Origin: an uncultured virus (IMG/VR IMGVR_UViG_3300035698_005365) | Lineage: Duplodnaviria; Heunggongvirae; Uroviricota; Caudoviricetes | DNA length: 64,000 nt | IMG/VR virus record: IMGVR_UViG_3300035698_005365 | Strand: one strand, 5' to 3' | Shown: piece by piece, positions 8,597 through 55,765 of the stretch | How positions within the stretch are numbered: position 1 is the first letter of the stretch | How the letters are laid out: the number at the start of each line of letters is the position of its first letter | Notes under the pieces: model-generated | Told to the model about the DNA's origin: nothing | Databases searched by the model: none | What the model saw: the letters and a program-made list of their open reading frames with translations, nothing else | Translations under genes and position numbers: made by a program

Positions 8597-8760
8597 GTTT
8601 TGTGTCTCACAATTAATATAAGCTTTCCTTTCAGTTTGAAAGGGAAGAATAAGCGTGGTTCTCCCACGATTTGGAGGTTATCCTGCCCGGATGGCAAGAT
8701 ACTAGAGATGTGGCACTCAAAAAGTAACACATAGGATATATGATATTATATCTTTCATTC

Positions 8761-8776
8761 CTTATAAAGGTTGTGA
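8761..8776 (-). promoter_or_regulatory. Probable promoter of the packaging operon
   Basis: Minus strand TCACAACCTTTATAAG; the same CACAAyCTTTATAA motif occurs on + at 11726 and 12446. Confidence 0.5.
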
Positions 8777-9177
8777 TTTTGCCCTGATATAGGGCAATAT
8801 ATGGGGCATATCACCCATATATCGCCTATATTGCCCTGATATGGGGGCATAAGTCCCCCGATACGCCCAATATTTTTTATATGGTACCCCTATGAAACTG
8901 AAATTACCATTATCTTTTTTGATAATGGTAAACTGACACCCCCCCCCCCAACTACGCTCTCAGTTCCCTGATACGAAGATCTACTACGCCCAGGATGTTA
9001 TTGTGTTAATAACATCCTTTATAAAGGAACTGAAACGAAAATTTGGTACGTATATACCGCCGACCCCTACATACCAATTTTCCTGATGCCTAAGAGCAAA
9101 CAATATAGACACCCCAACCTATATATTCAAGACTCTATATATTTATAAAGAAAATTCCCCAAAAAACTACTATAATC

Positions 9178-9250
9178 AACAACAACAAAAAACAAAAACA
9201 AAAACAAAAACAAAAACAAAAACAAAAAAAACAAAAAACAAAAACTAAAA
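9178..9250 (+). repeat. (CAAAAA)n low-complexity tandem repeat
   Basis: caacaacaacaaaaaacaaaaacaaaaacaaaaacaaaaacaaaaac... visible directly. Confidence 0.9.
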
Positions 9251-9261
9251 GGTGAAATAAA

Positions 9262-9318
9262 GGTATATATGCCTTTTGTGTATATAAGCATATTATATAT
9301 ACAAAAGGTTTATATACT
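9262..9318. repeat. About 57-bp imperfect palindrome containing mirrored TATA-like elements
   Basis: CCTTTTGTGTATATAA (9272-9287) vs TTATATATACAAAAGG (9293-9308), one mismatch, with outer GTATATA/TATATAC arms. Confidence 0.8.
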
Positions 9319-9701
9319 TAACCTCCTTAAGTACTATTATAATTAAGCGTACATATATATAAGTAGTTTGGATTAACTACCCAAAGGATTTAAATTTAAG
9401 CATGGGAATGTTTGGGTTTAAGTCACGCATACACTACTGAGTAGTAGTATGCTGACATAAGGTTGAAACACTACCACTTCCTAGTGAGAACTAGGTTTAA
9501 AGCGACTGTAGTAATTATGGTAGTTGCAACGCGGCATATCCACCCGTACACAAAAAAATTCTAAATAAGAATCTATAAGGTCGTAAGACTGAAAAGAATC
9601 TTTAGGGCAATAATAAAATAACTTTTTTAATTATAAGTTTCTGACATAAATTTAGAGTGTCGTTTAAAGAAATCTAGATATAAATTTAAAGGTGAAATAC
9701 C

Positions 9702-9989
9702 ATGAATGACTTAAAAGGAATTATGACAATAGTGCCATCATTAGATAGCAAAAGCGAGAAGGTACACTTAGGCAGTCTAAAGCCTGAGCAGTTCCAAGAG
9801 TATGTAGTAGAAACTTTTGAAGCTTTGAGAGGGAAACCTTTCACAGAAGTAGAACTATTAACATTAAGATTGAGTGCTAAAAAATCTATTGTTGATGTTC
9901 TGTTTGCATTAAAGCAGTTAGCACTTAACGATAATGCAGAACCTACTGAAGAAGAAGTTTCAGAAAATGCAACTGAAGTAGTAGAGTAA
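9702..9989 (+). CDS. Hypothetical early protein with acidic C-terminus
   Basis: AAGGTGAA RBS; followed by hairpin and T-tract. Confidence 0.7.
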   Translation: MNDLKGIMTIVPSLDSKSEKVHLGSLKPEQFQEYVVETFEALRGKPFTEVELLTLRLSAKKSIVDVLFALKQLALNDNAEPTEEEVSENATEVVE

Positions 9990-10030
9990 TTAGTGCCACT
10001 ATCTAGTAGCAACTAACTTTTTTCTTTTTT
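9990..10030 (+). terminator. Hairpin + T-tract terminator
   Basis: TAGTGCCACTATCTAGTAGCAACTA followed by T-tracts. Confidence 0.55.
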
Positions 10031-10056
10031 ATATTAACTAAATCTAAAAGGTAAAA

Positions 10057-10482
10057 ATGGAAAACAATAAAATAGTTTCAACACGACAACAGATTTATTA
10101 TCCAACAGATTCAATTGGACTGGCTCAAATCTTATTTAACCGCCGTCGAATATCCAAAAATGATTTTATGGTAATCAAATTTAAGAAAGTTAAGAGCACA
10201 TCTTATAAGCCACTCATGGCTAAATTAAATCTCTTTAGAAAAGAAATTGCAAAGAACAACAGATTTAAGGAACAGATGCACAATATAAAGCCACAATCAA
10301 AGAGAACCAAGATTAACACTCCTAGGGGTATCTATTCAATACCATTAACCAAGATAGCATCAAAGAATATTATTAATGATGTCTTTATATTTGAGGGAAT
10401 CGATAGACTTATTGACCATCAAGTAGAACAAGAAGGACAACAAGAAATAGAAACCAAGTTATCACTACATAATAACTATTAA
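10057..10482 (+). CDS. Hypothetical basic protein
   Basis: 141-aa ORF with AAGGT RBS. Confidence 0.6.
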   Translation: MENNKIVSTRQQIYYPTDSIGLAQILFNRRRISKNDFMVIKFKKVKSTSYKPLMAKLNLFRKEIAKNNRFKEQMHNIKPQSKRTKINTPRGIYSIPLTKIASKNIINDVFIFEGIDRLIDHQVEQEGQQEIETKLSLHNNY

Positions 10483-10496
10483 ACCACTACATCTAT

Positions 10497-10570
10497 ATAT
10501 AGTTGTCACTTTCTAGTGGCAACTATATCTTTATTTTTTTTTATTTTTTTTTATTTTTTTATTTTTTTTC
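10497..10570 (+). terminator. Hairpin followed by (T7-9A)n tract
   Basis: ATATAGTTGTCACT-TTCT-AGTGGCAACTATAT then four T-runs separated by single A. Confidence 0.65.
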
Positions 10571-10678
10571 TTATTAAAATTAGACGCGGGTGTATATTTT
10601 ACGCGCCCATGTATATATTTTACGCGTGGGCGTAATTCTGGGCGATGTTGCCCACAATAACAATTAAAGGTGAATACT

Positions 10679-11026
10679 ATGACAGAATATGAGAAATATA
10701 CAGGAGCCGATGGGCTAATACACCTACGGATTGTTTATCCAGAGGTTAAACAATTTAAACCTAAAGATGCAAGGGCTACAGGTATGTCCATTAAAAAACT
10801 GAAACGGTTTGACGAATCGGCAAACCGTTTGGCTTCCCATATGACACAGGTGCCTAAGAATACCCACATATCATGGGGGTGTGGGACTGTGTACTCTACA
10901 AGAGCACACAGTAATATTAAGACCGCATTTTCTCCTGCGGTCTCCAAGCATGAAGAAGCTAAGACTATTCCGAACCATGATTGTGGTATTAGGAACCTAG
11001 AGCATGGAACATTCAGTATTAATTAA
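10679..11026 (+). CDS. Hypothetical protein
   Basis: AAGGTGAA RBS favours the ATG at 10679 (MTEYEKY). Confidence 0.6.
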   Translation: MTEYEKYTGADGLIHLRIVYPEVKQFKPKDARATGMSIKKLKRFDESANRLASHMTQVPKNTHISWGCGTVYSTRAHSNIKTAFSPAVSKHEEAKTIPNHDCGIRNLEHGTFSIN

Positions 11027-11038
11027 GAGGTAATCAAT

Positions 11039-11230
11039 ATGGGAACAATGAACAATAGTTATGAGACTGAGTTAGACAATGCAAAAATAGATATGGCAAA
11101 CCTATTATATTACAGTGCCCACATGAACACTGCTGATAAAATGTTTGATACATTTAAGGCGAGTATGGGTGGACAGGTAGTAGCTACATATACGCCCCCA
11201 GAGAGGGTATTATCAACGCCCTCTTATTAA
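11039..11230 (+). CDS. Hypothetical protein
   Basis: 63 aa, GAGGT RBS. Confidence 0.55.
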   Translation: MGTMNNSYETELDNAKIDMANLLYYSAHMNTADKMFDTFKASMGGQVVATYTPPERVLSTPSY

Positions 11231-11245
11231 ACGCATACTCAATTA

Positions 11246-11650
11246 GTTGAAACAATAGATGAATCATCTAGATACAACAATAAGAGACAAAAAAGAAATG
11301 GCTCCCAGCGGGCAGGTCACGTGATGGTGACCACCATTTTTTACATTCAAGTGGTTGAAACAATATCTTAGGATTGGAAACAACACGATGAAGAAGTGCA
11401 CCGCCGTGGTGAGGGACTTACCCCCACGGCTTATATTTATTGATAACCCCGTACATGACCCCCAATGGTGTAGCCTTCCTTCTTAAGGTCGGTTACACCT
11501 TATGCTCAGATGTTACATTGCTACTAGGAATACCATTCGTGGTGGACTATTGGTAGCTGGGTGATAGCATAATGGTCTCTTCGGAGTAGTTATGCTATTA
11601 TATTCATTGATTTCTATCCTTAACTGGAAACACCCTCTTTAATTAGAGGG
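11246..11650 (+). ncRNA. Putative structured non-coding RNA region (array of about 8 hairpins)
   Basis: No ORF of 60 aa or more; consecutive GC-rich stems, a C-UUCG-G tetraloop at about 11580, G-U pairs on the + strand. Confidence 0.55.
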
Positions 11651-11827
11651 TTTATATTGCTAAAATTACCCCTTTATAAAGATTTATATTCTCCAGTATA
11701 TAGGTTAGAGTATATAGGTTTAAGACCACAACCTTTATAAAGAATCACTTGAAGTTATATATAAAGGCTTCGGTTTTCTACTCAGGGGTTTCAGAACTAA
11801 CAACCTCTGAGACCATTTCCATTCAAA

Positions 11828-12031
11828 ATGAAACAACCATTACTAAAATTTACAGGAAGACATCCAGAGAGTCTTAGAGTTGTAGATATGGAGTTCTATA
11901 GCCTAAAACAAGCTAAGTTCTATAATCCACACTTAATTGAAGTCAAGCAGGTACTCAGAGTGTACTCCTTTATAAAGGTTCTACCTACCTTTATAAACAA
12001 AATAGCGGATACATTCGAGAAGGCTGTTTAA
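11828..12031 (+). CDS. Hypothetical protein (uncertain)
   Basis: 67 aa, no clear RBS; 3' part overlaps two TTTATAAA boxes. Confidence 0.35.
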   Translation: MKQPLLKFTGRHPESLRVVDMEFYSLKQAKFYNPHLIEVKQVLRVYSFIKVLPTFINKIADTFEKAV

Positions 12032-12554
12032 AGGCGATCTGAGCCACTTTAAAAAGTTCAAGGTATGTTTGCATTAAGACACTACTAATCTTGCCTTGTA
12101 GGTACCTCTATGGAGCTTAGAGCCCTATCTGTGCATTGAGATAGAACCCCAAAATCACGTACTATTAATTAAAGGGGCATTAAAGGGCGTTATAGAAGGG
12201 CGTATTAGAGGGTACCCTCAATCAAAGAACCCCTTTAAACAAAGGGTACCCTCACTCTAAGGGTACTCTCAATCTACTAGTATGGGACTTACACTAGGTC
12301 TACTACTAGGTAAACCTACTGGTAGATTACTAGTATATTAGAATGAGAGTATTACTAAGAGTATTTTTCTTAATTAAAGGGTAGTAATGTGTGTGCCGTA
12401 TACGCCACCGTATACTCTTTAACTACTAGTATACGGTGTTGCAAACCACAATCTTTATAAAGGGTGGATTTGCAACAAATTACAACAAATACTATCAATT
12501 CTTTTATAAAGGATTGGTAGATTCTGGGCGATTCACTGGGGTGAGGTTACAATC

Positions 12555-14513: not shown

Positions 14514-15182
14514 ATGACAGAAAAAATAAAAGAAGATACTATTAAGTTACCATCATTCAACGTTAAGGGTAAATGTAACTTAATAGTTAGAGCGGGTAGA
14601 GGAACATTAACGTCGGGCATCGGGTGCCATGATATGTTTGTAAATAAGTTTTTAAACTATCGACACAATATGGAACCATATAAGTTTTCATTCACAAATG
14701 CTAGAACAGAGACACCATTCAAAGTTAGAGAGATAGTAAAGCATCTACAAAAAATATGTGATTATTATAGAGTATCTGTAAACATTACATATAATAATGA
14801 TAATATTATTAACTGTATAGTACCAGCCAAACATCCTATATACCTTTCATTCTTATTAAAGGCCGTTAGGGAGGCATGGGCATTTAATTTAGCCAATACT
14901 GGTAATAAGTATTATAAAAATACAATTGACGCCAACTATCCAGCTGTATTTAATGAGCGATGCATATTAGCAAATATTAGAGATGTTCCATATGATTATA
15001 GGTATCAGATGTTTTATTTAACTGGTAGATTTTCAATAGAAGCAATGAGATTATTAGAGATGTCAATGTTATTTCCAGAATTTAAAAACATAAGACAAAA
15101 TGGAATATATGCATATTGTTATGAGGCATATAATCTTATACAAGGGGTACAGAATAATCGAAAGAAGGTAACTAAAAAATGA
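14514..15182 (+). CDS. Hypothetical protein (amidoligase-cluster associated)
   Basis: 222 aa, AGGTGA RBS, overlaps the start of the PuuD-like gene. Confidence 0.65.
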   Translation: MTEKIKEDTIKLPSFNVKGKCNLIVRAGRGTLTSGIGCHDMFVNKFLNYRHNMEPYKFSFTNARTETPFKVREIVKHLQKICDYYRVSVNITYNNDNIINCIVPAKHPIYLSFLLKAVREAWAFNLANTGNKYYKNTIDANYPAVFNERCILANIRDVPYDYRYQMFYLTGRFSIEAMRLLEMSMLFPEFKNIRQNGIYAYCYEAYNLIQGVQNNRKKVTKK

Positions 15183-15859
15183 CTAAAATTAAATTAGTTG
15201 GGGTACTCCAGAGTGGGTATCTAGAAAACAACGAAACATATGTAGAGTGGATACAAGCTAGGGGCTTTGCAACGATGCTTATTCCTTATTCTGTCCATGA
15301 TGATGATGAAACTGTTAAGAGATTAATTAAGGCCTGTGACGCCATTGTGTGTCCAGGGGGTGCCGATGTGCACCCATCACATTATAATGCAACTATTGAT
15401 GGAGCAAGGGCATGCTACTATTATTTTGACATATGGCAATTAATGTTTGTTGCAGAGGCAGTTAAGCAAAAGAAAAAGATCTTTGGAATTTGTCGTGGAC
15501 ATCAACTAATTAATGTGTACTTTAATGGTTCAATAATTCAAAACTTAGATTCAAATAAATCTATGGGTGCCCACTATCAAACCAATGGCCTCTTTGGATT
15601 TGGACGTGGTGAACCATTTCATAGGATTACATCTATCCTAAACAAAAAAGATAATAGAGATGTTAATTCAATGCACCATCAAGGAATAACAACCTTAGAG
15701 TTAGGTAATGGATTAATGCCACTCTATGAAAGTAAAGATACCATCATTGAAATTATGAAGCATGAAATATTGCCAATTCTTTCTGTACAATTTCATCCAG
15801 AAGAAATGGATATTGATACATGGAACGATTACTTTGAGGCATTTGTTAATAGCGAATAA
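15179..15859 (+). CDS. Gamma-glutamyl-gamma-aminobutyrate hydrolase-like class I glutamine amidotransferase (peptidase C26, PuuD-like)
   Basis: PGGADVHP, FGICRGHQLIN (nucleophile Cys), VNSMHHQG, VQFHPE. Confidence 0.9.
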   Translation: MTKIKLVGVLQSGYLENNETYVEWIQARGFATMLIPYSVHDDDETVKRLIKACDAIVCPGGADVHPSHYNATIDGARACYYYFDIWQLMFVAEAVKQKKKIFGICRGHQLINVYFNGSIIQNLDSNKSMGAHYQTNGLFGFGRGEPFHRITSILNKKDNRDVNSMHHQGITTLELGNGLMPLYESKDTIIEIMKHEILPILSVQFHPEEMDIDTWNDYFEAFVNSE

Positions 15860-15888
15860 TTATAACTTCTTTCTTGTGTATTAACTTT

Positions 15889-15963
15889 TCCCCTATCGAA
15901 AATGTATTATGGCCGCCAGTCATGATATCTAGGATGTGTGATGGTTCGAGACCATCTAGGGGA
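15889..15963 (+). tRNA. tRNA-like element or degenerate tRNA; identity not assignable
   Basis: 75 nt; acceptor stem TCCCCTA/TAGGGGA and T-arm GATGG-TTCGAGA-CCATC are perfect; D and anticodon stems do not pair canonically. Confidence 0.45.
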
Positions 15964-15966
15964 GTC

Positions 15967-16279
15967 TGTGTTAAGCTAAGGCTTAACACATTATATAATG
16001 TAAACAAGTAGGTAATCATACTATTGAAACACTTACATTATATTTTCTACTCATTAAATCCGCTAAACAGCACATGTAGAGCAAGAATTGTAGCAATACA
16101 GGAGATTCTGCTACATGTAAAAACAACCAGTGGTCTCAGAGAACAAGGGTGTATTCCCGTCTATCTGGTTGTGCTGGGCGAGAGATATTGTGAAGGTTAA
16201 GACCTTCACAATCATTATTATGGGCGGTTGGTCTAGTGTTCACCGCCCTCTATTTATACGCTCACCTATGGGCTGAGCG
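15967..16279 (+). ncRNA. Putative structured RNA region (7 consecutive hairpins)
   Basis: For example TGTGTTAAGC-taag-GCTTAACACA, ATTGTGAAGGT-taag-ACCTTCACAAT, GGGCGGT/ACCGCCC. Confidence 0.55.
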
Positions 16280-16393
16280 GCTTTATATTTAAGGTGAATT
16301 AAATGCCAGTATGGGCTCCAAGGGCACTCAACTATAAGACTATGAAGTGTGGTAAATGGGTTGCAACAGTTGTAGAGTTAGAGGTGCATTTAA

Positions 16394-16630
16394 ATGAGCG
16401 TCGACGAAAGGGTTATACAAATAGAGTCATCAATCCAGAGGGCACTTGATTTAGGGGACATTGTCGGACAGTGTTGCGACTGTAGGATTATGTTCAAACC
16501 AGGTGGCACTGAAGATTGGATAGAGACCACCATAGTTCCACCTGATTATAAAAATATATCACATGGGTATTGTCCACCATGCCATAAAGCCGTCATTGCT
16601 CAAGTTAGAGAGTATAATAACAAACAGTAA
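16394..16630 (+). CDS. Small Zn-binding protein (CxxC...W...SHGxCPxC)
   Basis: QCCDC...EDW...ISHGYCPPC; GAGGTG RBS. Confidence 0.65.
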   Translation: MSVDERVIQIESSIQRALDLGDIVGQCCDCRIMFKPGGTEDWIETTIVPPDYKNISHGYCPPCHKAVIAQVREYNNKQ

Positions 16631-34094: not shown

Positions 34095-34421
34095 ATGAGA
34101 AAAGGCACAAAATATGATTCGGAAAAAATTTTATACAATCTCTTAGACTTTAAATTTATAGATGGTATTGTAAGAATATTAACCATGGGTGCTAAAAAGT
34201 ATGCACCTAAAAATTGGATGTTAGTAGAAGATGCTGAAGAACGATACAAAGCAGCCCTCATGCGACATACTTCATCCTATCTACAAGGAGAAGATTTAGA
34301 TCCTGAGAGTGGAGAGTCACACCTATATCATATAGGATGTTGCTTAATGTTCTTAGATTATTTCAGGAGGCAAAGATGCCACGAGCAAGACACACAACAA
34401 GAAAACAAAGACAAGAGGTGA
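34095..34421 (+). CDS. dATP/dGTP diphosphohydrolase-like protein (DUF5664-like)
   Basis: KYDSEK, LTMGAKKYAPKNW, ALMRH, GEDLDPESGESHLYH. Confidence 0.85.
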   Translation: MRKGTKYDSEKILYNLLDFKFIDGIVRILTMGAKKYAPKNWMLVEDAEERYKAALMRHTSSYLQGEDLDPESGESHLYHIGCCLMFLDYFRRQRCHEQDTQQENKDKR

Positions 34422-45045: not shown

Positions 45046-46254
45046 ATGGACAATAAGAAGATTATGTGGGTTAGCAACAACCCCTTATTGGTAACCGGGT
45101 ACGCCCACGTTACTAAGGAAATATGTAAACGATTGAGCGACAGGGGCCACGAGGTCTTTGTAGTTGGAGACCAATATATTGGACAGCCTACTAAGATGAA
45201 GGACTTCTTTGTTATGCCTAGATCCGATGCTGGTAAAGACTTATTATTTTCATGGATGAAGCAGGTTGATCCAGACTATGTTGTATTTTTAGAAGATACC
45301 TTTACTTTAGCAAAGCAGCAATTTGCTAATGTTGATTGGAGTCAAATGAAACCAAAAATCTTAATATATCATCCGCAAGATGGTTGGGGAATACCTACTC
45401 CAGGACTATCAGTTATGAAGGTTGCCGATCAGTTAGTAGCTATGTCTAAATTTGGACAAGAATTAACTAAGGTTGAGATGGACATTGATACGCCATTCAT
45501 TCATCATGGTATAGATCCTAAAACATTCAATCCTGTATCCAATGAACGTAAGATGGAGTTACGTAAGAAATATCAGATTCCAGAAGATGCATTTCTATTT
45601 TCATATGTTGGACGTAATAGTTTACGCAAGATGAATCAATTACTTCTTGAGACTATGGTTAAGTTTATGAAAGATCACAAGGATGTTTATTTTATGGGGC
45701 ATATTAGTAACCCAGGAGATGGCGGCCTTGATTTATATGATTTCTTAAAACGAGGAATTGCATCAAGAGCACGTAGTGATATATATGATGATGTAATTAA
45801 TAGTAATAGAATTAAATTCAATCCGAGAGCCCAATCATTAATGCTTGGTGCATCTAATGAAGAGATGGCAGAGATTTATCAAATGTCTGATTGTTATATT
45901 TCTTCAAGTTCTGGAGAGGGATTCGGAATGCCACTAACAGAGGCTATGGCCTGCGGCATCCCAGTAATCGCTACTGACTTTACAACAACAAAAGAATTAA
46001 TCCTTGACGGCCCACTAGAACCACGAGGCTTTGGAATAAAACCTCAAGCAATTTGGACAAGTTCTTTTAATGTAGATCATGCAATCTGGGATCAAGAAGA
46101 TGCCCTTAAGTGTATGGAACTTATGTATTCTGACGATGACCTAAGGGAAACTATGGGGAAGGCAGGAATAGAATTCATTCAAGACAATTGCCTTTGGGAC
46201 GACCTAGTTGATAAATGGGAAGTAGTATTTGAAAACACTGAAAAACGAAAATGA
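45046..46254 (+). CDS. Glycosyltransferase family 4 (GT-B)
   Basis: TGYA, IHHGID, VGRN, EGFGMPLTEAMACGIPVI. Confidence 0.9.
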   Translation: MDNKKIMWVSNNPLLVTGYAHVTKEICKRLSDRGHEVFVVGDQYIGQPTKMKDFFVMPRSDAGKDLLFSWMKQVDPDYVVFLEDTFTLAKQQFANVDWSQMKPKILIYHPQDGWGIPTPGLSVMKVADQLVAMSKFGQELTKVEMDIDTPFIHHGIDPKTFNPVSNERKMELRKKYQIPEDAFLFSYVGRNSLRKMNQLLLETMVKFMKDHKDVYFMGHISNPGDGGLDLYDFLKRGIASRARSDIYDDVINSNRIKFNPRAQSLMLGASNEEMAEIYQMSDCYISSSSGEGFGMPLTEAMACGIPVIATDFTTTKELILDGPLEPRGFGIKPQAIWTSSFNVDHAIWDQEDALKCMELMYSDDDLRETMGKAGIEFIQDNCLWDDLVDKWEVVFENTEKRK

Positions 46255-47177
46255 AGATAAATATTTTTTCACATAAGTATGGAAACCTAAATGAAATTCC
46301 AGATGGGACAGAAGATCCACAGGATCTTTTGGCCATTGGAATCAATTTACAAGATCGGCTACATACTGTGAAAATCTATGACATTCGTGAGTACCTTTTA
46401 TTTTTTAAGAAGTTTAATGCTGCCCCCGATACTATTAATATATTAGAGGTGCCTGCTAAGTCCAGCTATATGAATGGATTAGCCAGCATCGTAATACATA
46501 AATTATCTAATGTATATGTATATCATTCAGCAGATATGGGAGACTTAGAGGCCCTAGATGATGATAAGTTTGAAGTTTATTCAACTTTAATTAAGAAGTC
46601 CCATGGAGTCCTTTATAAATATAGTGATGCAGTCGATTATCTTTTATCATTAAATAAAAAGGTACAGAAGGTTGGCCACATAGTTAATGTGGGTTCATTG
46701 AAAGATGACCTCCATATAGCACAGGTAGCAAATAAAATATTATATGTCCCTGGGTACCAAGATCTTCTTTATAATAATATTTTAATTCAACGGCTCAGAA
46801 AGTTAACAGTTCCACAAGATGTATATGTATATCTGCCAAGTCCCAAGAGAGCAAAGAAGTGGTTTGCTAAATTTAAGTTAGACCATAACATACATATTAT
46901 TAGGAGACCGTTTGAAACGATCTTGGAACGTATGCAATTTATGTCAACATGTTCAGTAGTTATAAATTTTAACAATGATAACGATGCATATGATTTAAGT
47001 TATGAGGCAGCCTATTTGGGCATACCATGCTTCTGTAAATGTGAGAATGGCTACACTCACCATGGAGCATTTAAACAATTAGAAATGTTACCGTCCAGTA
47101 TAACGCCAGTTAAGATTGATTATAACTCAGATAGATTAATGAATGCAATCGAAGTATTCCTATGGGGGAGCCGTTAA
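46251..47177 (+). CDS. Divergent GT-B-like glycosyltransferase
   Basis: C-terminal SYEAAYLGIPC resembles the GT-B donor-binding motif; island context. Confidence 0.55.
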   Translation: MKINIFSHKYGNLNEIPDGTEDPQDLLAIGINLQDRLHTVKIYDIREYLLFFKKFNAAPDTINILEVPAKSSYMNGLASIVIHKLSNVYVYHSADMGDLEALDDDKFEVYSTLIKKSHGVLYKYSDAVDYLLSLNKKVQKVGHIVNVGSLKDDLHIAQVANKILYVPGYQDLLYNNILIQRLRKLTVPQDVYVYLPSPKRAKKWFAKFKLDHNIHIIRRPFETILERMQFMSTCSVVINFNNDNDAYDLSYEAAYLGIPCFCKCENGYTHHGAFKQLEMLPSSITPVKIDYNSDRLMNAIEVFLWGSR

Positions 47178-47178
47178 G

Positions 47179-47484
47179 ATGCCACGTCCAACTAAAATAA
47201 AACTACCAATATCCGTTATAGATGTAGAATATGTAGATGACCTAACCAGTGCCGATGATGATAAATTAAATGGCGCATGTTCATTAAGTAGAGAACATAT
47301 CTTAATGGAAAAATCTATTGGAAAGAATTTTATGAAACATGTATTACTACATGAATTATTTCATATGATGACTAGTAATTGTCAAATAGAACTAAATGAA
47401 ACTGAAGTAGATGTTATTTCATTACAATTACAATATCTTATAGAAAACAATCATGGGCTAATCAAATGGATACAGGAAAAATAA
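47179..47484 (+). CDS. Small HExxH zinc metallopeptidase-like protein
   Basis: VLLHELFH...ETEVD. Confidence 0.65.
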   Translation: MPRPTKIKLPISVIDVEYVDDLTSADDDKLNGACSLSREHILMEKSIGKNFMKHVLLHELFHMMTSNCQIELNETEVDVISLQLQYLIENNHGLIKWIQEK

Positions 47485-48494
47485 ATGTAATAATTACAAC
47501 CGAGATGGGCATAGTGGGTAAGGTCCCCGAAGACTATCCTAATATGCGAGTAGAGTTTGCATGGGCACGAGCCCTCGATGCAATCTTTGTGCCATTACTA
47601 AGCCTAAACAACTATCTATCAAACGCCGAGACATTAGCTAACACTATTATATTATTCATCTTACCAAATGGTTCTCGTCGCTACGATCATTATCCATTAG
47701 AAATAAAGAAACAATATGCCTGTAAGATTGGAGTCATTCAAGAGGGCCCCATAACTATATATCAAGATTGGTCGGTCACTGAACAATTAAATTACTTCCA
47801 TACTTTGGAGAATGTAGACGCACTCTGCGTCCACAATGTAGCTGATAAATTATATTTAAAAAACCTTTTAAATATAGATGTGAATAAGATTCACATCTTC
47901 CAAACGATTATTAATGATCGTATATTAAAAAAGGTAGTCCCACTTCCTATGGAGAAGAGGCGTGGTATTATTTTAAGTGGAAACTTTTCATCTTGGTATG
48001 GTGGCATGATGGCCTACAAGTTAGTTAGGAAGATGTTTCCTGATGAGAAGATTTATATGCCTGGCTCTGGGCGTGTCACTCGAGATGAACATATATTTAA
48101 AGATATCACAATCCTTCCATGGTATAGTTGGGAAGACTGGATGGAAATGCTTAATCAATTTAAAATAGGAATAAACTTAATGTCAACGCGGGCCGCAGGT
48201 ACATTCTCCCTAAACTGCGCCCTTCTTGGTATCCCATGTATCGGCTTCTCTGATCTTGATACGCAACTATTGACACAACTTGATACTTTAACTTTTGATA
48301 AAGAAAACTTACAACCTATACATCCTAAATATCCAAAAATACATGAAGTACTTTATACTTTATATAATGATAAGAATGTATATAAGATGGCCCAGGGATA
48401 TGGGCTACAGATTAGTAAACAATATTCAATTGAAAATAAAAAAGAATACTTTCAAAACATAATGAAGAAGATTTTAAAAGGTGGCCCCCAATGA
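47466..48494 (+). CDS. Divergent GT-B-like glycosyltransferase
   Basis: AAGTFSLNCALLGIPCIG; resembles 46251-47177. Confidence 0.6.
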   Translation: MDTGKINVIITTEMGIVGKVPEDYPNMRVEFAWARALDAIFVPLLSLNNYLSNAETLANTIILFILPNGSRRYDHYPLEIKKQYACKIGVIQEGPITIYQDWSVTEQLNYFHTLENVDALCVHNVADKLYLKNLLNIDVNKIHIFQTIINDRILKKVVPLPMEKRRGIILSGNFSSWYGGMMAYKLVRKMFPDEKIYMPGSGRVTRDEHIFKDITILPWYSWEDWMEMLNQFKIGINLMSTRAAGTFSLNCALLGIPCIGFSDLDTQLLTQLDTLTFDKENLQPIHPKYPKIHEVLYTLYNDKNVYKMAQGYGLQISKQYSIENKKEYFQNIMKKILKGGPQ

Positions 48495-48964
48495 AAGAAC
48501 CAAAGAGCATAGTAGTTGTATCTGGATACTTTGATCCAATACATGTAGGACATTTAGAATACTTTAATCAAGCACAAGATTATAAATTCGATAGTGAAGA
48601 TTCAGAAGTTGATAAATTTATTATCATCGTCAATAATGATAAACAACTTAAGTTAAAAAAGGGAACACCCTTCATGCCAGAGTTTGAGAGGCTTACTATA
48701 TTAGCTAATATAAAAACAGAAGCATATGATAGTGAAGTAGTTTTAGCACTAGACGATGATTCATCTGTATGTAGAACATTAGAATATATTCGAGCAACCA
48801 ATCCATATGATAATATTGTATTTGGAAATGGTGGCGACCGCAAGATTCAAGAAGTGCCAGAGAAAGCAACATGTGATAGACTTAATATTAATATGGTAGA
48901 TGGTCTTGGTAAAAAGATTCAGTCTAGTTCAGCTTTAATTGCGGGGTCTAAAGATGGGGCTTAA
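48491..48964 (+). CDS. Cytidylyltransferase-like nucleotidyltransferase (TagD/RfaE family)
   Basis: SGYFDPIHVGH, VNND, NGGDR, QSSS. Confidence 0.88.
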   Translation: MKEPKSIVVVSGYFDPIHVGHLEYFNQAQDYKFDSEDSEVDKFIIIVNNDKQLKLKKGTPFMPEFERLTILANIKTEAYDSEVVLALDDDSSVCRTLEYIRATNPYDNIVFGNGGDRKIQEVPEKATCDRLNINMVDGLGKKIQSSSALIAGSKDGA

Positions 48965-49223
48965 GATAATTAAATTTTATGCCGAGTGGTGTGGCCCTTG
49001 TAAACAACTTAAACCAGTCTTTGATGATGTATGTCCATTATATACAGATGTTGAATTTATGGATATTGATGTTGACGATACTGAATATGAATATTTAAAA
49101 AAAGAATATAACGTACGCTCAGTACCTAGAATTTTCTTTATAAAAAATAATGAACCAGTATTTGAACATACGGGATTTATATCTCGTGATCAACTTGTAG
49201 AAAAGATAGAGGAATTAAAATGA
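48954..49223 (+). CDS. trxA: Thioredoxin
   Basis: FYAEWCGPCK, VRSVP. Confidence 0.92.
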   Translation: MGLKIIKFYAEWCGPCKQLKPVFDDVCPLYTDVEFMDIDVDDTEYEYLKKEYNVRSVPRIFFIKNNEPVFEHTGFISRDQLVEKIEELK

Positions 49224-50152
49224 ATTTAGATAATAAAAAAATATTAATCGTTGGAGGAACTGGGTCATGGGGGCAGGCATTGACTAGACAAATTTTAGAT
49301 CAATATAATCCTAAGAGTATTAATATTTTATCTAGATGTGAACAGAAACAAGTTGATATGGAGAGACAGTTTAATAATAAACTTCTTAAGTTTCATATCG
49401 GTGACATTAGAGATAAGGACCGCCTCTTAGAAGTTATGGGCGATATAGATATTGTATTCCATTTGGCTGCACTTAAACATGTTCCAATTTGTGAAACACA
49501 TATAAATGAGACGGTTAAAACTAATATCCTTGGAACTCAAAATCTTATTGATGTGGCAAAGTACTATAATATTAAAAAGTTTATACTAATTTCAACCGAC
49601 AAGGCTGTCGATCCAATCAATACTTATGGACTATCTAAAGCATTAGCAGAGCGAATAGTTATTAATGCTGGATATATATGTATTAGGGCTGGTAATGTTC
49701 TTGGAACTAGCGGCTCAGTAGTACCATTATTTTATAAACTAGCCAAGGGCGGCCACCCAATAACTGTTACAGATCCATACATGACAAGATTTTCAATGTA
49801 TCTTAACGACGCCATTAATCTTATATTTAAAGCCCTCCAGTCGGCACAGTCTGGAGAAGTATATGTTATGAAAATGGATAGTTATTTATTAAAAGATTTA
49901 GCAGAATTATATTCGGAAAAATATAAAGTTCCAATTAATATAATTGGGACCCGTGCTGGTGAAAAGAAGCATGAGATTTTAGTTTCTAAATATGAGTTTG
50001 GTCGAGCAGAGGATGATGAAACATTCTTTAAAATTAAATCAATGACTTCAAAAAACCAATCAACATCTACACAATCGTTTCAATCCAACACTACAAATAT
50101 TATTCCAAAGAATGAATTGAAACAATTATTAGAAGAAGGTGGTTGGTTATGA
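49220..50152 (+). CDS. UDP-GlcNAc 4,6-dehydratase (PseB/FlaA1/CapD-like SDR)
   Basis: GGTGSWG, GDIRD, HLAALKHVP, STDKAVDP, YGLSK, GEKKHE. Confidence 0.9.
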   Translation: MNLDNKKILIVGGTGSWGQALTRQILDQYNPKSINILSRCEQKQVDMERQFNNKLLKFHIGDIRDKDRLLEVMGDIDIVFHLAALKHVPICETHINETVKTNILGTQNLIDVAKYYNIKKFILISTDKAVDPINTYGLSKALAERIVINAGYICIRAGNVLGTSGSVVPLFYKLAKGGHPITVTDPYMTRFSMYLNDAINLIFKALQSAQSGEVYVMKMDSYLLKDLAELYSEKYKVPINIIGTRAGEKKHEILVSKYEFGRAEDDETFFKIKSMTSKNQSTSTQSFQSNTTNIIPKNELKQLLEEGGWL

Positions 50153-50907
50153 ATACATTAGTTACTGGTGGGAGTGGGCGCCTCGGCTCTATGTTTAAAA
50201 AGAAACACCCAAAGTTTTTATATCCAACCGTGAAAGAACTTGATATAATCGATCCATCTTCAATCCACAAATATTTAAATACACACAAAATATCAAACAT
50301 TATTCATTTGGCGGCCATGACAGCTGTCGATAAATGTGAGACTAATCGTGAGCTGGCCTATGAAATAAATGTGGTCGGCACTCAAAACCTATACAGAGAA
50401 AGTATATATGGTGGCATACCATCATTTATATATGTAAATTCTGCATGCATCTTTGGCGGGAATCGAGAAGAGGTTGCGTACGAAGATACTATTCCAGTCC
50501 CAGATAATTATTATGGAGTAACTAAACTCCTAGCAGAGCACTCGCTATTATCAATGTATGATATGGCGCCCATTGGTGATGTTTTTTATAAGTTAAATAT
50601 TGTAAGAACAAACTTCACTTCGATGCCGTGGGAATATCCTGCAGCATTCACTGATAGATATGGTACTTATTTATTCACTGAAAATGTTGTTGATGGAATA
50701 ATGGATGTATTTAACACGGTATGCACCCCAACAATTATTCATTTATGTGGAGATAAAAAAATGAGCATGTATGAATATGCAACACTTGGTAAATCAAATG
50801 TTAAAAAAATTACAATGGCTGACTATAATGGTCCAGCTAAATTAACTAAGAACATGAGTCTTGGTACAAAGCACTGGACTCCCTATGAGGCAAAATTAGC
50901 AAAATGA
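50143..50907 (+). CDS. NDP-4-keto-6-deoxysugar reductase (RmlD-like)
   Basis: TGGSGRLG, AAMTAVDKCE, INVVGT, YGVTKL. Confidence 0.82.
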   Translation: MVMNTLVTGGSGRLGSMFKKKHPKFLYPTVKELDIIDPSSIHKYLNTHKISNIIHLAAMTAVDKCETNRELAYEINVVGTQNLYRESIYGGIPSFIYVNSACIFGGNREEVAYEDTIPVPDNYYGVTKLLAEHSLLSMYDMAPIGDVFYKLNIVRTNFTSMPWEYPAAFTDRYGTYLFTENVVDGIMDVFNTVCTPTIIHLCGDKKMSMYEYATLGKSNVKKITMADYNGPAKLTKNMSLGTKHWTPYEAKLAK

Positions 50908-51686
50908 AAATCGATGTATTTATACCAACGATACCTGAGACGCAAGAATATTTAAAACTTTGTTTACTCGGATTAGAAAAAAACAAAGAGTATATAAATA
51001 AAATTCATATTTATGGAAACAAATATTCACAAGAGAACTTAGAAGATCTACAAGTCTTAGAGGGTAAGTGTACTATTCCAACGAATGTTTATATTAACCC
51101 CCGCAATATGGGGCAAGCAATTGTTATGAATGAGTTTGTTATTAATAATTGCGAAACAGAATACTTTATGATTATAAATGATGATATGGTTTGTGATAAA
51201 AATATGTTAAAGAATATGCAATTTCATTTAACTAACGATAACCTCCCATACGAATTACTATGTCCTAAAATAGTAGAGCCAGGTACTAAGGTACCAGTGG
51301 CGCCCCAGTTTGTTACCTTAGATTGCGGGGATGATTCTACAAACTTTGATGTAAAAAAGTTTGAAGATTATTGTGATAATGCTCCACGATCATATGAAAA
51401 AATTAGAGAACACTCACTACCATTTATTATGAGACGACAATTATATATAGCGTTAGGTGGCTGGGATGAAAACTTAACATCTGGCCCATGTTCGGATACT
51501 GATTTCTATATGAAAATGGATATATTAAACTTAAACTATTATCAAGATCAATCATCTTTTTGTTACCACTTCAGTGGGAAGGCCAGTCGTCTTAATCCTA
51601 AATGTGATTTTGCAAATAGCTTTCAAGCACTAGAAACTAAGAACCTTAAATATTTAAATAGTAAATGGAGACAAAATGGGAATTGA
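50904..51686 (+). CDS. Glycosyltransferase family 2 (GT-A)
   Basis: VFIPT, INDDM, GGWDE, SDTDF. Confidence 0.82.
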   Translation: MKIDVFIPTIPETQEYLKLCLLGLEKNKEYINKIHIYGNKYSQENLEDLQVLEGKCTIPTNVYINPRNMGQAIVMNEFVINNCETEYFMIINDDMVCDKNMLKNMQFHLTNDNLPYELLCPKIVEPGTKVPVAPQFVTLDCGDDSTNFDVKKFEDYCDNAPRSYEKIREHSLPFIMRRQLYIALGGWDENLTSGPCSDTDFYMKMDILNLNYYQDQSSFCYHFSGKASRLNPKCDFANSFQALETKNLKYLNSKWRQNGN

Positions 51687-53316
51687 GAATATAGGAAAGA
51701 TTGGTGTGGACTTTACAGAACACTCGGATATATTATATTATTTATGTAATGCATTCAAAGTAAAATCAATTTTAGAATTAGGAGTAGCGAACGGTTGTTC
51801 AACCCTAGCGTTTGCTGAATATGCTAAAGAGGCCAAGGTTCCATTTACTTCTGTAGATATGACACCAATGGCCCCCCATACCAAAGAGTATATGGATTTA
51901 AACTATGCAGGCCTTTGGAAATTTATTTTATCTGATGATATTAAACTTGAATGGATAGAAGATGTTGATTTAGTATTTATAGATACTAGTCATGAATATG
52001 AACACACTCTTAAGGAATTAAATAAGTATGGGAAACATGCCAACAAACTTATTGTGCTACATGACACAGAACAGGTTGGAGAATTAGATGGCCAGGTGCA
52101 ACGTGCAATAACTGAATATTGTGACCAAGAGAATTTACCATGGTCTAAATTTACAAATCAGTATGGGCTTGCATTTATATATAAACACTTTGAGGAACCG
52201 AATATGGAAGTAAGTATTATTATAAAAACAAAAAACAACTTTGATTATTTATTAACATGTTGCCAAGCTATACGTAATCATATGAAATACAATCATGAGA
52301 TCGTAATTGTGTTTAATGGATGTAATAAGGAAGATGAAGAGAAGTTTGTTAAAGACTTCGATGATAACAATACTAAGATTATATCTCTAAAGGAGCCTGG
52401 TTTATGTACAGCCACCAATGCGGGTATCAGGGAAGCATCTAATGAATGGGTCTGGTTGTTTGATGATGATTATATTCCAGGATTATTATCCGATGAATTT
52501 ATAGCAAAGGGCCTAAAGATCAATACTGTATATTCAAACATATTAGTTGAGCCAGGTAACCAACCAGTGTCTCCATTTTTAATTGAAAAGAACTTTGGTC
52601 GTGAACTAAATGAATTTAAGGCAGACGCCTTTGATGACTTTGTTCTTAAGACTATAAGTGAAACCACTCGACCGAATGAAGTATCTTATCCTGTCCTAGT
52701 GCATAGAGATGTAATAAATAAAGCGGGCAACCTAGATCCTAGATTTGATCGGGCATACGCTAATGATCCCGACCTATGGTATCGCCTTAAATTAAGTGGT
52801 GCCTCCTTTGAAAGAAATTGCTCATCAATCTTTTATCATTTTAGTGGGAAGGCTAATGCAGCCGAACATGCAGGGCAGGCCAGCGCAAAACGTAAAGAGA
52901 TTGAGTTAGCATGCAATAAAGATTTTATTCGAAAGTGGGGTGAGATGTTTAATTATTCATTTGGTAGCGATGTTAAACCACAAGTACCATGCCATCGCAA
53001 ACAGAGTCAATACAAGCCACTATCATTAGGAATAATTTCAGACTCTATGGATTATATAAAGGCTATTATTAAATTCGAACCTTTCTTTGATAAAATTGAA
53101 ATTAAAACAAACCTATCAGGTTTCGATGTGAATCAAGTTTTATATAATTATATTATAAATGAAAAAAGTGTTGATTATTTATTTTCTAAGTTTAAAATTG
53201 TAAAGGAAATAAATACAGATATAACCTTACAAGATGGCGCGGTATTGTTTATTGATACAGTTGTGCAGGCCCGACGTAATTTATATATCAAAAAGGATGT
53301 GACTAATAATGAATGA
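51676..53316 (+). CDS. Class I SAM methyltransferase (Methyltransf_24-like) fused to a GT2 glycosyltransferase
   Basis: N-terminal LELGVANGCST, FIDTSHEYE, LHDT; then VSIII, LFDDD, DPDLWYR. Confidence 0.82.
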   Translation: MGIENIGKIGVDFTEHSDILYYLCNAFKVKSILELGVANGCSTLAFAEYAKEAKVPFTSVDMTPMAPHTKEYMDLNYAGLWKFILSDDIKLEWIEDVDLVFIDTSHEYEHTLKELNKYGKHANKLIVLHDTEQVGELDGQVQRAITEYCDQENLPWSKFTNQYGLAFIYKHFEEPNMEVSIIIKTKNNFDYLLTCCQAIRNHMKYNHEIVIVFNGCNKEDEEKFVKDFDDNNTKIISLKEPGLCTATNAGIREASNEWVWLFDDDYIPGLLSDEFIAKGLKINTVYSNILVEPGNQPVSPFLIEKNFGRELNEFKADAFDDFVLKTISETTRPNEVSYPVLVHRDVINKAGNLDPRFDRAYANDPDLWYRLKLSGASFERNCSSIFYHFSGKANAAEHAGQASAKRKEIELACNKDFIRKWGEMFNYSFGSDVKPQVPCHRKQSQYKPLSLGIISDSMDYIKAIIKFEPFFDKIEIKTNLSGFDVNQVLYNYIINEKSVDYLFSKFKIVKEINTDITLQDGAVLFIDTVVQARRNLYIKKDVTNNE

Positions 53317-54010
53317 TACCGATAGGCTTACATTACAAAACTTAAATATTAACAAGGAGCCTTCAATAGCAATTGGCGTCCTTGTTGGCGAAAAGGATGC
53401 AAACAAAATATATAACTTTCTTCGAAAGAATGAGCCATACTTTAATAAGGTATATATTATTGCAGACTGTGGGCCAGACGATATCCCTATTATAAAAGAA
53501 GTTGGTCGCTATGTATCAGATGAAACTGAAAAATCTAAACTCTTTTCATCAAACAAGATTACAATATTACCACACTTATTAAATGATGATTTCGCAGCTA
53601 TGCGGAATGCCGCCGTTGCTATTAATGAATGTGAGTGGCTATTCATGTTGGATGCTGATGAGACATTAGAAGCGAAGGGCCTCGTTCATTTTAGAACTAT
53701 TATCCAAAAGATGGAAGAGGATGAGGCCGTAGATGTGGTTGGATTTCCAAGGGCAAACTTCATCGACGGCAAACAGACTCCAGTATATCCCGACTACCAA
53801 TTTAGATTAGTACGTAAGGGGATCAAGTGGACCAATACCAGTCCAAGTGTGGGCGCAGTCCCTGGGTGCCACGAGTATCCTGAGCCAGCAATTAGGCGCG
53901 AGCGCGTTGGCGTCTTAAGAGAGCCACAAATTCTACACCCAAAAACAACAATAGAACAAGAAGCACAAAATAAATATTATAAAGAAATAGAAGGTAAGCA
54001 AGATGAATAA
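53309..54010 (+). CDS. Glycosyltransferase family 2
   Basis: DFAAMRN, WLFMLDADE, PDYQFRL, CHE. Confidence 0.85.
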   Translation: MNDTDRLTLQNLNINKEPSIAIGVLVGEKDANKIYNFLRKNEPYFNKVYIIADCGPDDIPIIKEVGRYVSDETEKSKLFSSNKITILPHLLNDDFAAMRNAAVAINECEWLFMLDADETLEAKGLVHFRTIIQKMEEDEAVDVVGFPRANFIDGKQTPVYPDYQFRLVRKGIKWTNTSPSVGAVPGCHEYPEPAIRRERVGVLREPQILHPKTTIEQEAQNKYYKEIEGKQDE

Positions 54011-54467
54011 GGATATAAAGACACAAGAAGTGCCACCAGATATGGCAATTGATGAGAAAGAAGTTATTAAGATTAATGAAGATGTTGCAATCTTAGAGAG
54101 GCCCGAGCTTGATGAAATTATAGCTAAGTTCCAGAAGTCTCTTGGTAATACTGAGACATGGCAAAAGTTAACTGTATTTTATTTTCAATGTTTAGATAAA
54201 TACAGCGACCTAACCAGTGAAGAGATAGTTGAAAAAGATTATCTATATTTAATGATTGGACTACGAAACCCAAGTAACCCAGCAGCAATTATTGGAGTTA
54301 TGCCCATTGCCTTTAAGAATGAAATACTTTCATTTAGACAGGAAGATTATAATCAGATATGTAATATGCTTGAGATGGAATTTCCTGTACGACTATCAGT
54401 ATATAATGATAAGATGACCGTTGGTGTCAAGGAGGTTAAAGATGAGAGTTCTAATAAAGAAGAATGA
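54003..54467 (+). CDS. Hypothetical protein
   Basis: 154-aa ORF. Confidence 0.6.
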   Translation: MNKDIKTQEVPPDMAIDEKEVIKINEDVAILERPELDEIIAKFQKSLGNTETWQKLTVFYFQCLDKYSDLTSEEIVEKDYLYLMIGLRNPSNPAAIIGVMPIAFKNEILSFRQEDYNQICNMLEMEFPVRLSVYNDKMTVGVKEVKDESSNKEE

Positions 54468-54684
54468 AGATGGTAAGTATACCACCCTTATTGGCGACCT
54501 TGATGTGAGCCAATATGTTTCTGGATTCTCAGTAGATGCGAGGGTTGATAAGAGTCCCCAAGTCTATTTAATCTTGACGCCAGATTGTGTCGATATAGAT
54601 CTAGAGGATATCGAGTTACGCTCGATATCTTATACTAAGTTAAAGAAAATCGAGGGGCATGGGGACCCCGACATCGTTCTTTAA
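54442..54684 (+). CDS. Hypothetical protein
   Basis: GGAGG RBS before MRVLIKK. Confidence 0.55.
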   Translation: MRVLIKKNEDGKYTTLIGDLDVSQYVSGFSVDARVDKSPQVYLILTPDCVDIDLEDIELRSISYTKLKKIEGHGDPDIVL

Positions 54685-54685
54685 A

Positions 54686-55765
54686 ATGGCTAAGATATTA
54701 TTCAACTCGGTCTTATATACTCCCGAGGGTATCACCAAGCATGCCCGTGAGGAAGCGAAGGAATTGCTGGCTAGAGGCCATCAATTATTTGTTACTGATA
54801 TTAACTACAAGAAAGAGTATGGTGAGGAGTATACAAAAATGTATACCCCTTTTGATAGGACTAAAGATGACTATATTCATTATATGATTCAGCCACCAAT
54901 ACGACCTAATAATATACCAGCATGTCTAGCAGGCTATACTAATGAGAAGAGATTGTTTTATTTTCTAGCATTTGAGGCATCATTGCCGAAGCAGTGGGTT
55001 GAAGTAATCAACTATGCGCAGATGAAATGTATCATTGTGCCTAGCATGTATAATAAAAAGGTATTCGAGCGGTCCGGCATTCGGCATCCTATTGAAATAC
55101 TGCCACATGGCATAGATCCTAGCTTCGCATACAAGGCTAAGCAGAGCCCATCTGAGGCACTTAAATTATTGTGGGCTGGTACCCTTCACAACTCAAGAAA
55201 GGGCCTCAGAGAGGCTTATATGGCCTTTAAGACCCTATCTGAGAGATACCCACACCTTACCCTAACAATAAAGGCCAGTGGAGTCTATGGATGCAGTGAA
55301 AAGTATAAAGAAATCTTAGATGAAGCAAGCAAGAATCCTCGCATTAATATTATAACAGATATCCTTTCAGATGCTGAAATGGTAACCTTATTTCAAGACC
55401 ATCATATATATTTAAGCCCCCATACTAGTGAAGGTTTCGGTATGCATATACTTGAGGCCCTCGGAACAGGGACACCTGTCGTTTGCAGTGGCTGGAGTGG
55501 CAATGTAGACTTCACAAAGAACGTCGCCCTCCATATAGACTTCGATGAAGAGTATAAAGTAGAAGAGGCCCCATATACAGGGCAGATATGGAAGCGTCCA
55601 TCTGTATCTAGTATCATTGATGTAACCAGTAAATTAATAGAGAACTATGATGATTATGCTAAGCTATTTAAAAAGCATAGTGTTGATATCCATAAAAAGT
55701 ACTCATGGATCAATATAGTAGACCAATTAGAGGATCTGTTTATAAAGTATGGTGCAATAAACTAA
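54686..55765 (+). CDS. Glycosyltransferase family 4
   Basis: PHGID, RKG, EGFGMHILEALGTGTPVV. Confidence 0.88.
   Translation: MAKILFNSVLYTPEGITKHAREEAKELLARGHQLFVTDINYKKEYGEEYTKMYTPFDRTKDDYIHYMIQPPIRPNNIPACLAGYTNEKRLFYFLAFEASLPKQWVEVINYAQMKCIIVPSMYNKKVFERSGIRHPIEILPHGIDPSFAYKAKQSPSEALKLLWAGTLHNSRKGLREAYMAFKTLSERYPHLTLTIKASGVYGCSEKYKEILDEASKNPRINIITDILSDAEMVTLFQDHHIYLSPHTSEGFGMHILEALGTGTPVVCSGWSGNVDFTKNVALHIDFDEEYKVEEAPYTGQIWKRPSVSSIIDVTSKLIENYDDYAKLFKKHSVDIHKKYSWINIVDQLEDLFIKYGAIN

Follow-up and report, generated by a model that had tools for sequence, protein, structure and literature searches.

The locus described here raises the question of whether a short sequence resembling the upper half of a tRNA, placed between protein-coding genes of a phage, is a functional RNA signal or what remains of a tRNA gene. 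It lies in an ORF-poor gap of a 64,000-nt stretch of viral DNA that was analysed as a whole and is referred to below as the window. The features at issue are the following:

15179..15859, + strand: class-I glutamine amidotransferase / peptidase C26 gene (PF07722, E 9.7e-33; PF00117; phrog_7218).
15860-16302: ORF-poor gap of 443 nt, holding the 75-nt element and seven hairpins.
15889..15963, + strand: tRNA top-half element, 75 nt, made of an acceptor stem, a non-tRNA middle and a T arm.
16303..16449, + strand: first ORF past the gap, 48 aa, with AAGGTGA in front and no Pfam family.
16394-16630, + strand: Cys-rich ORF of 78 aa, overlapping the 48-aa ORF.

The amidotransferase stop codon and the 75-nt element are 30 nt apart, both on the + strand, as are all genes flanking the gap. 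Farther downstream, Pfam recognizes a receiver-domain protein, a gamma-glutamyl cyclotransferase-like protein and two phiEco32-type COOH-NH2 ligases, together with a class-II amidotransferase and an ATP-grasp protein. The virus that carries the element is a large, uncultured phage of the virulent type, and the window, which is part of its genome, encodes a terminase, a portal, a family-B-like polymerase, a ribonucleotide reductase and many auxiliary genes (Pfam and PHROG scans). Near-identical sequence is present in Logan contigs from runs labelled as salt-lake metagenome; no RNA run is among those listed as containing the stretch.

The phage is an orphan without close relatives, its protein relatives being at most 40% identical. 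No DNA match to the window was found in 50,697 phage records, and the nearest relative of the amidotransferase among 5.8 billion proteins is 40% identical. A profile search with this protein collected 80 loci from viral and 80 from metagenome sequence, none of them above 37% identity, whereas single-protein locus searches (second ligase, 221-aa ORF) were empty and a tblastn search of the phage records with the ligase gave no match. Many of the 161 amidotransferase-relative loci share the ligase / ATP-grasp / cyclotransferase set.

Several other regions of the window deserve mention in their own right. At 8600-9700 the strand switches between divergent gene blocks and the GC skew changes sign. 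A ten-C run (about 8940-8950) is found there, along with several hairpins and an extended A-rich tandem tract (about 9170-9245), and the stretch may act in replication origin or control. The palindrome CTTTATAAAG (allowing up to one mismatch) occurs 35 times in the window versus 6.24 expected, a count reached in none of 100 shuffles. Its copies span 1697-55777 with a cluster at 9017-12462; seven are exact, and five of these (at 9017, 11672, 11733, 11968 and 12453) fall within or close to the early region, which is poor in ORFs; the palindrome is possibly a phage promoter or regulator site. A 108-aa protein (34095-34421) with the N-terminal domain of dATP/dGTP diphosphohydrolases (PF18909, E 5.1e-27) hints at nucleotide-pool manipulation or modified DNA. 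The block at 45046-55765 combines glycosyltransferases, sugar epimerases/dehydratases, a cytidylyltransferase and a methyltransferase-glycosyltransferase fusion, a sugar-metabolism module that is unusually large for a phage. On the - strand, 55983-57335 matches phrog_1745 ('DNA transfer protein', E 1.8e-105), which we take to be a T5 A1-type protein.

The anatomy of the element is that of a tRNA in its upper half. The two strands of the acceptor stem, TCCCCTA (15889-15895) and TAGGGGA (15957-15963), form Watson-Crick pairs at 7/7 positions, and the T arm (15940-15956, GATGG-TTCGAGA-CCATC) has a 5-bp stem and a 7-nt loop with the T54 T55 C56 R57 A58 pattern and the closing pair G53-C61. The discriminator is a G at 15964, CCA is not encoded, the base at position -1 is T, and position 3-70 of the acceptor stem is C-G, so that a G3-U70 pair is absent. 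When the gap is folded as a 441-nt sequence, the MFE and centroid structures both contain the two stems, whose pair probabilities are 0.70-0.998 in a 651-nt context. A perfect acceptor stem and T arm, as reported in the preliminary description of this DNA, were thus confirmed in coordinates and sequence, the stems being intact at all 12 pairs. The distance from acceptor strand to T stem is 44 nt here, versus 40-43 in most ARAGORN-called tRNAs from related loci in the same scan.

The 44-nt middle (15896-15939) has neither a D arm nor an anticodon arm, and none of its loops presents a GTT anticodon. The same description had spoken of scrambled D and anticodon arms; the arms are indeed absent, but the wording 'scrambled tRNA arms' is not borne out, as the middle has no detectable tRNA similarity. 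Aligned with the bodies of 11 distinct Asn/Gln tRNAs it reaches at best 26/44 identities, versus 24.3 +/- 1.8 for shuffled sequence, of which 71/300 do as well. Its MFE structure, a single 10-bp hairpin with a 5-nt loop and three G-U pairs, is not significant (z -0.84; 192/1000 shuffles fold at least as well). With a G+C content of 0.41, the middle is close to the window as a whole (0.358), while the top half stands at 0.55. The idea that the middle hairpin is a recurring swapped-in module was rejected: its 17-mer has just two identical viral matches, both without hairpin or tRNA-like context and resembling coding sequence by eye.

The 75-nt element is not a functioning tRNA. ARAGORN at default settings finds no tRNA anywhere in the window, in which Rfam likewise has no family at gathering score, and on the element itself ARAGORN returns nothing at default, -ps95 or -ps90. 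A covariance-model search had been proposed together with the first account of the element; run with Rfam on 801-nt and 93-nt queries, it gave no tRNA or other family at E <= 10, the tRNA model included. A distorted 'tRNA-Gly(gcc)' called at -ps85 and -ps80 was dismissed as noise, since the window yields 4 and 19 calls at these settings versus 4.4 and 24 per shuffle. A tRNA-Glu-like reading of pairwise alignments was also discarded, the alignments being out of register. AsnRS requires the anticodon, and a G3-U70 pair permits alanine charging of minihelices. Under these identity rules an element with no anticodon, no G3-U70 and an asparagine-type top half is unlikely to be aminoacylated or to act as an aminoacyl carrier.

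The top half, on the other hand, is non-random, and chance is excluded in practice. The motif GGTTCGARNCC occurs once in the window versus 0.05 expected. A strict scan (perfect 5-bp T stem, GTTCRANNC, perfect 7-bp acceptor immediately after the T stem, spacing 38-48) matched once in the window and never in 3000 single-strand shuffles, whereas a looser version, tolerating one G-U and a spacing of 25-130, has 4 matches in 200 shuffled windows. Applied to the 161 amidotransferase-relative loci (1.19 Mb), the looser scan matched only ARAGORN tRNAs and no 'top half only'. It had been suggested that the top half of a tRNA alone is kept here; this holds for one element in the window, and its pattern is unlike uniform point-mutation decay.

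To place the top half among known sequences, we searched with its 3' signature, GGTTCGAGNCCNNNTAGGGGAG, which matched 27 viral and 61 genome loci. ARAGORN calls tRNAs at 34 of these 88, namely 30 tRNA-Asn(GTT) and 4 tRNA-Gln(TTG), and several of them share the exact acceptor stem TCCCCTA/TAGGGGA with the element. By this resemblance the top half is of the asparagine type, and it appears to be tRNA-derived. Its identities to tRNAs (24-27/32) are partly built in because the search pattern fixes 18/32 top-half positions; the exact 24-mer of T arm and acceptor has 0 matches in viral contigs. Ordinary phage tRNA-Asn(GUU) genes have the same acceptor stem, a discriminator G and the T loop TTCGAGN, whereas the element lacks their D and anticodon arms as well as a loop with GTT, and is negative in ARAGORN at default.

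The remaining 54 loci, which are not tRNAs, are mostly a Micromonospora leader, with a few that resemble 3' fragments of tRNA-Asn. In 0/54 of them does the region 20-130 nt upstream hold a complementary 5' strand. The 5' strand of the element therefore reflects either inheritance from a complete tRNA or selection that kept the stem. The leader (L189-L248, mostly Micromonospora, match at 151-172) contains a conserved T-arm look-alike followed by TAGGGGAG; it recurs in ~40 Micromonospora genomes, ahead of a gene whose start was read by eye as secA. We rejected it as a relative of the element, since its T arm differs by one base but it has no 5' acceptor strand and is ARAGORN-negative. Six loci (L196, L198, L199, L201, L216 and L226) are lone tRNA-Asn 3' fragments, running from the anticodon loop or the T arm to the 3' end with no 5' half, and resemble the end duplications that arise when mobile DNA integrates into a tRNA gene. 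Three candidate-phyla MAG contigs (L192, L233 and L247, one labelled Saccharibacteria) carry a tRNA-Asn-type T arm and 3' end that ARAGORN does not call, the T arm being preceded by a conserved non-tRNA stretch (…CCCGACCGAGAGGCATTG…).

The rest of the gap is occupied by hairpins, scored below as the number of 1000 shuffles that fold at least as well:

15967-15990, + strand: H1, perfect 10 bp, loop TAAG, -13.9 kcal/mol (0/1000).
15993-16043, + strand: H2, A/T-rich 11-bp outer stem with a 29-nt interior (8/1000).
16072-16118, + strand: H3, 8-bp outer stem plus an inner hairpin (6/1000).
16123-16172, + strand: H4, 8-bp outer stem, marginal and the weakest of the seven (41/1000).
16187-16212, + strand: H5, perfect 11 bp, loop TAAG (0/1000).
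16222-16248, + strand: H6, G+C-rich 7-bp GGGCGGT/ACCGCCC with a 13-nt loop (3/1000).
16259-16279, + strand: H7, short, directly ahead of the ribosome-binding site of the next ORF (13/1000).

All seven hairpins previously noted behind the element were located, the last ending at 16279, and the two with identical TAAG loops are H1 and H5. These two are perfect palindromes (24 and 26 bp), each of the form TGTG...TAAG...CACA. H1 begins 3 nt past the discriminator and is the most stable hairpin of the gap. H5, with the tail CATTATTATG, was flagged as terminator-like in the scan; H6, whose 13-nt loop exceeds the limits of that scan, has a T-rich tail (TCTATTTATA) and is possibly a terminator. The folding energy of the gap was -135.7 kcal/mol (z -5.09) for the + strand, compared with -117.1 kcal/mol (z -4.0) for the - strand. 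The + strand is better by 18.6 kcal/mol owing to G-U pairs, which points to RNA of the coding strand.

The element and its hairpins had been taken, with a second array, for members of a family of tRNA-mimic small RNAs. The search for such a family failed: the window has no second strict top half and no shared repeats. Under relaxed top-half criteria the entire window yielded 5 matches versus 2.97 per shuffle, the other four all lying inside ORFs and outside the 15860-16302 gap. Compared with the window by blastn-short, the gap produced just 10-15-nt chance matches and its own inverted repeats; H1-H7 share no sequence family, and the palindromes have no copies elsewhere in the window. A second ORF-poor, hairpin-rich stretch at 11231-11830 (MFE -169.2 kcal/mol, z -4.54) is probably the 'array 1' of the preliminary description; it contains no T-arm-like element and has no sequence in common with the gap. 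H6 had been read as the 5' end of a tRNA, reaching into the D arm, fused to its 3' strand. Its 5' 15-mer, GGGCGGTNGGTCTAG, has 93 matches in viral contigs, at 0/93 of which an ARAGORN tRNA starts, and we therefore abandoned H6 as a tRNA remnant. The hairpins are ordinary RNA hairpins, not tRNA mimics.

What, then, is an intact tRNA top half for? By analogy with the t-elements of plant mitochondria, we tentatively favour a tRNA-derived processing signal, to which we assign a probability of about 0.42. The acceptor/T-arm helix is the half of a tRNA that end-processing enzymes read. According to this model, the element would be transcribed within the operon RNA, having no convincing promoter of its own (the scan gave 44 promoter-like sites versus 44.7 expected, none standing out). 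Host RNase P would cut just ahead of 15889 and a 3' tRNA-processing activity (RNase Z or exonucleases) after G15964, so that the upstream amidotransferase message is parted from the downstream RNA. The latter would start 3 nt ahead of H1, which could shield the new 5' end, while the other hairpins may serve as stabilisers and H5 and H6 as terminator-like structures. Transcription, cutting and protection are what we infer from the arrangement: the position 30 nt past a stop codon, the T at -1 and a stable H1 after 3 nt favour a processing signal. The intact state of 12/12 stem pairs and of the T-loop consensus next to a random-like middle points the same way, as evenly spread decay would not leave such a pattern.

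The processing model has its own weak points. The missing D-loop partner of the T loop and the lack of an encoded CCA may lower the efficiency of RNase P. As the element occurs once in 64 kb, it would not, if it is punctuation, belong to a general system in this phage, and H2 to H7 are left unexplained. Furthermore, an intact top half could persist without any selection if a tRNA gene had undergone a single replacement or deletion.

Such an event is the basis of the main rival, which we consider somewhat improbable: an asparagine-type phage tRNA gene would have lost its D and anticodon arms at one stroke and now be inert, neutral spacer DNA, with the hairpins as unrelated terminators or stabilisers. 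The rejection of the element as a tRNA by every program and model (the relaxed ARAGORN call being at noise level), its single copy in the window and a middle of genome-like G+C with neither significant structure nor tRNA similarity are all consistent with a relic. The replacement would, however, have had to preserve the 75-nt length, all 12 stem pairs and the T loop, and phage genomes shed useless DNA, yet the ~440-nt gap has been kept and is identical in runs dated 2017 and 2018. The contigs of salt-lake runs X2, X3, X4 and X6 show 0 differences over the element where they cover it; being identical, they are uninformative about selection. Some support for a relic might be seen in two distant phages with the same enzyme set, L001 and L016, which carry true tRNAs within 400 nt past the amidotransferase gene. 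We rejected this as synteny evidence, because 2/161 loci is close to what chance gives at the tRNA density of these loci. In L001 (4001-4971, a distant phage contig), the amidotransferase match covers just query residues 100-210, and behind it come genes for tRNA-His and tRNA-Phe, separated by 3 nt. If the element is a relic only, it amounts to a minor oddity in the decay of tRNA genes, in an otherwise uncharacterised salt-lake phage.

A trans-acting product appears considerably less likely than either. Here the element would be excised, receive CCA and persist as a stable small RNA that ties up enzymes recognizing the acceptor end of tRNAs. It could be a decoy for toxins of defence systems that modify the 3' ends of tRNAs, or a handle by which the hairpins behind it are set free as small RNAs. 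In the extended form of this idea, to which we would give long odds, the element heads a ~370-nt non-coding unit that would be processed by host RNase P, RNase Z and CCA-adding enzyme into a CCA-tailed 75-nt mimic and stable hairpin RNAs; if true, a bacterial virus would have its own equivalent of herpesvirus TMERs and plant t-elements. A tRNA-like element directly before stable hairpins is the layout of TMERs (PMC4838037). The strong structure of the gap on the coding strand (z -5.09) agrees with such a unit, which the terminator-looking H5 and H6 could close. The promoter scan described above, with nothing standing out, and the absence of a common sequence family among the hairpins argue against it, as does the improbable aminoacylation of an element with neither anticodon nor G3-U70. 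In addition, no CCA-adding enzyme, tRNA-related ligase or Ro60/TROVE protein is present among the 73 window ORFs scanned with Pfam.

The palindromic nature of H1 and H5, shared in its TGTG...TAAG...CACA form, and the over-representation of another palindrome, CTTTATAAAG, in this phage would suit a signal at the DNA level, with these and other palindromes as sites of a dimeric regulator or as replication/recombination signals and the tRNA-like piece as incidental. We regard this as improbable, since the advantage of the + strand in folding points to RNA, the likely origin or strand-switch region is elsewhere (8600-9700), and the palindromes of the gap are not repeated in the window. Finally, a purely accidental resemblance to a tRNA top half is hardly credible: the looser scan sometimes fires on shuffled sequence, but the strict scan never did in 3000 shuffles, the 5' strand is missing from all 54 control loci sharing the 3' signature, the length is exactly tRNA-like, and the discriminator and acceptor are of the asparagine type.

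The element can be compared with several known RNAs. The stable RNAs C and D of phage T4 are small non-tRNA RNAs that are encoded in a tRNA cluster and processed by tRNA enzymes. They lie among working tRNAs, whereas ARAGORN finds none in the window, and no Rfam or sequence relation to the element emerged. The tRNA-like domain of tmRNA also consists of an acceptor stem and T arm with the anticodon arm absent. Unlike tmRNA, the element has no G3-U70, no tag reading frame and no pseudoknot domain, with just 44 nt between its strands, and a tmRNA search of it was negative even when relaxed (ARAGORN -m, -ps80). YrlA-type Y RNAs of bacteria and phages are non-coding RNAs with a tRNA-like domain read by tRNA enzymes; for YrlA of M. 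smegmatis, PMC4201824 describes a 7-bp acceptor-like stem, cleavage by RNase P and addition of CCA. YrlA also has a D-arm mimic, a Ro60-binding helix and an adjoining Ro60 gene, whereas our locus has no Rfam match, and no TROVE domain is found among the 73 ORFs scanned.

The TMERs of MHV68 consist of a tRNA-like element with two hairpins and are processed by tRNase Z (PMC4838037), and they share with our locus a viral tRNA-like element directly followed by stable hairpins. They belong to a eukaryotic virus and have Pol III promoters within the tRNA-like part, Dicer processing and eight similar copies, whereas the phage has one copy, seven unlike hairpins and no microRNA machinery.

The t-elements of plant mitochondria are the parallel for the processing signal that we favour. 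Forner et al. 2007 (PMC1920247) describe them as tRNA-like sequences of ~74 nt in which the T arm is conserved but the cloverleaf is non-canonical; they are embedded in mRNA precursors, where RNase P and RNase Z cleave them to yield mRNA ends. That paper describes no such element in phages or bacteria. The phage element resembles them in length (~74-75 nt), in the conserved T arm and acceptor stem, in the non-canonical cloverleaf and in its position beside coding regions. Its T arm agrees with the t-element motif GGTTCRANYCC at 10/11 positions, with A instead of Y. The t-elements differ in being organellar, with mapped ends and CCA-type additions. The phage element also carries a caution for annotation: tRNA finders and Rfam overlook such elements completely, so that only a search for the acceptor/T-arm half finds them. 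If tRNA-processing enzymes do cut the element, it would be a compact, portable processing signal, and phages, like plant mitochondria, would reuse the upper half of a tRNA as punctuation of long messages.
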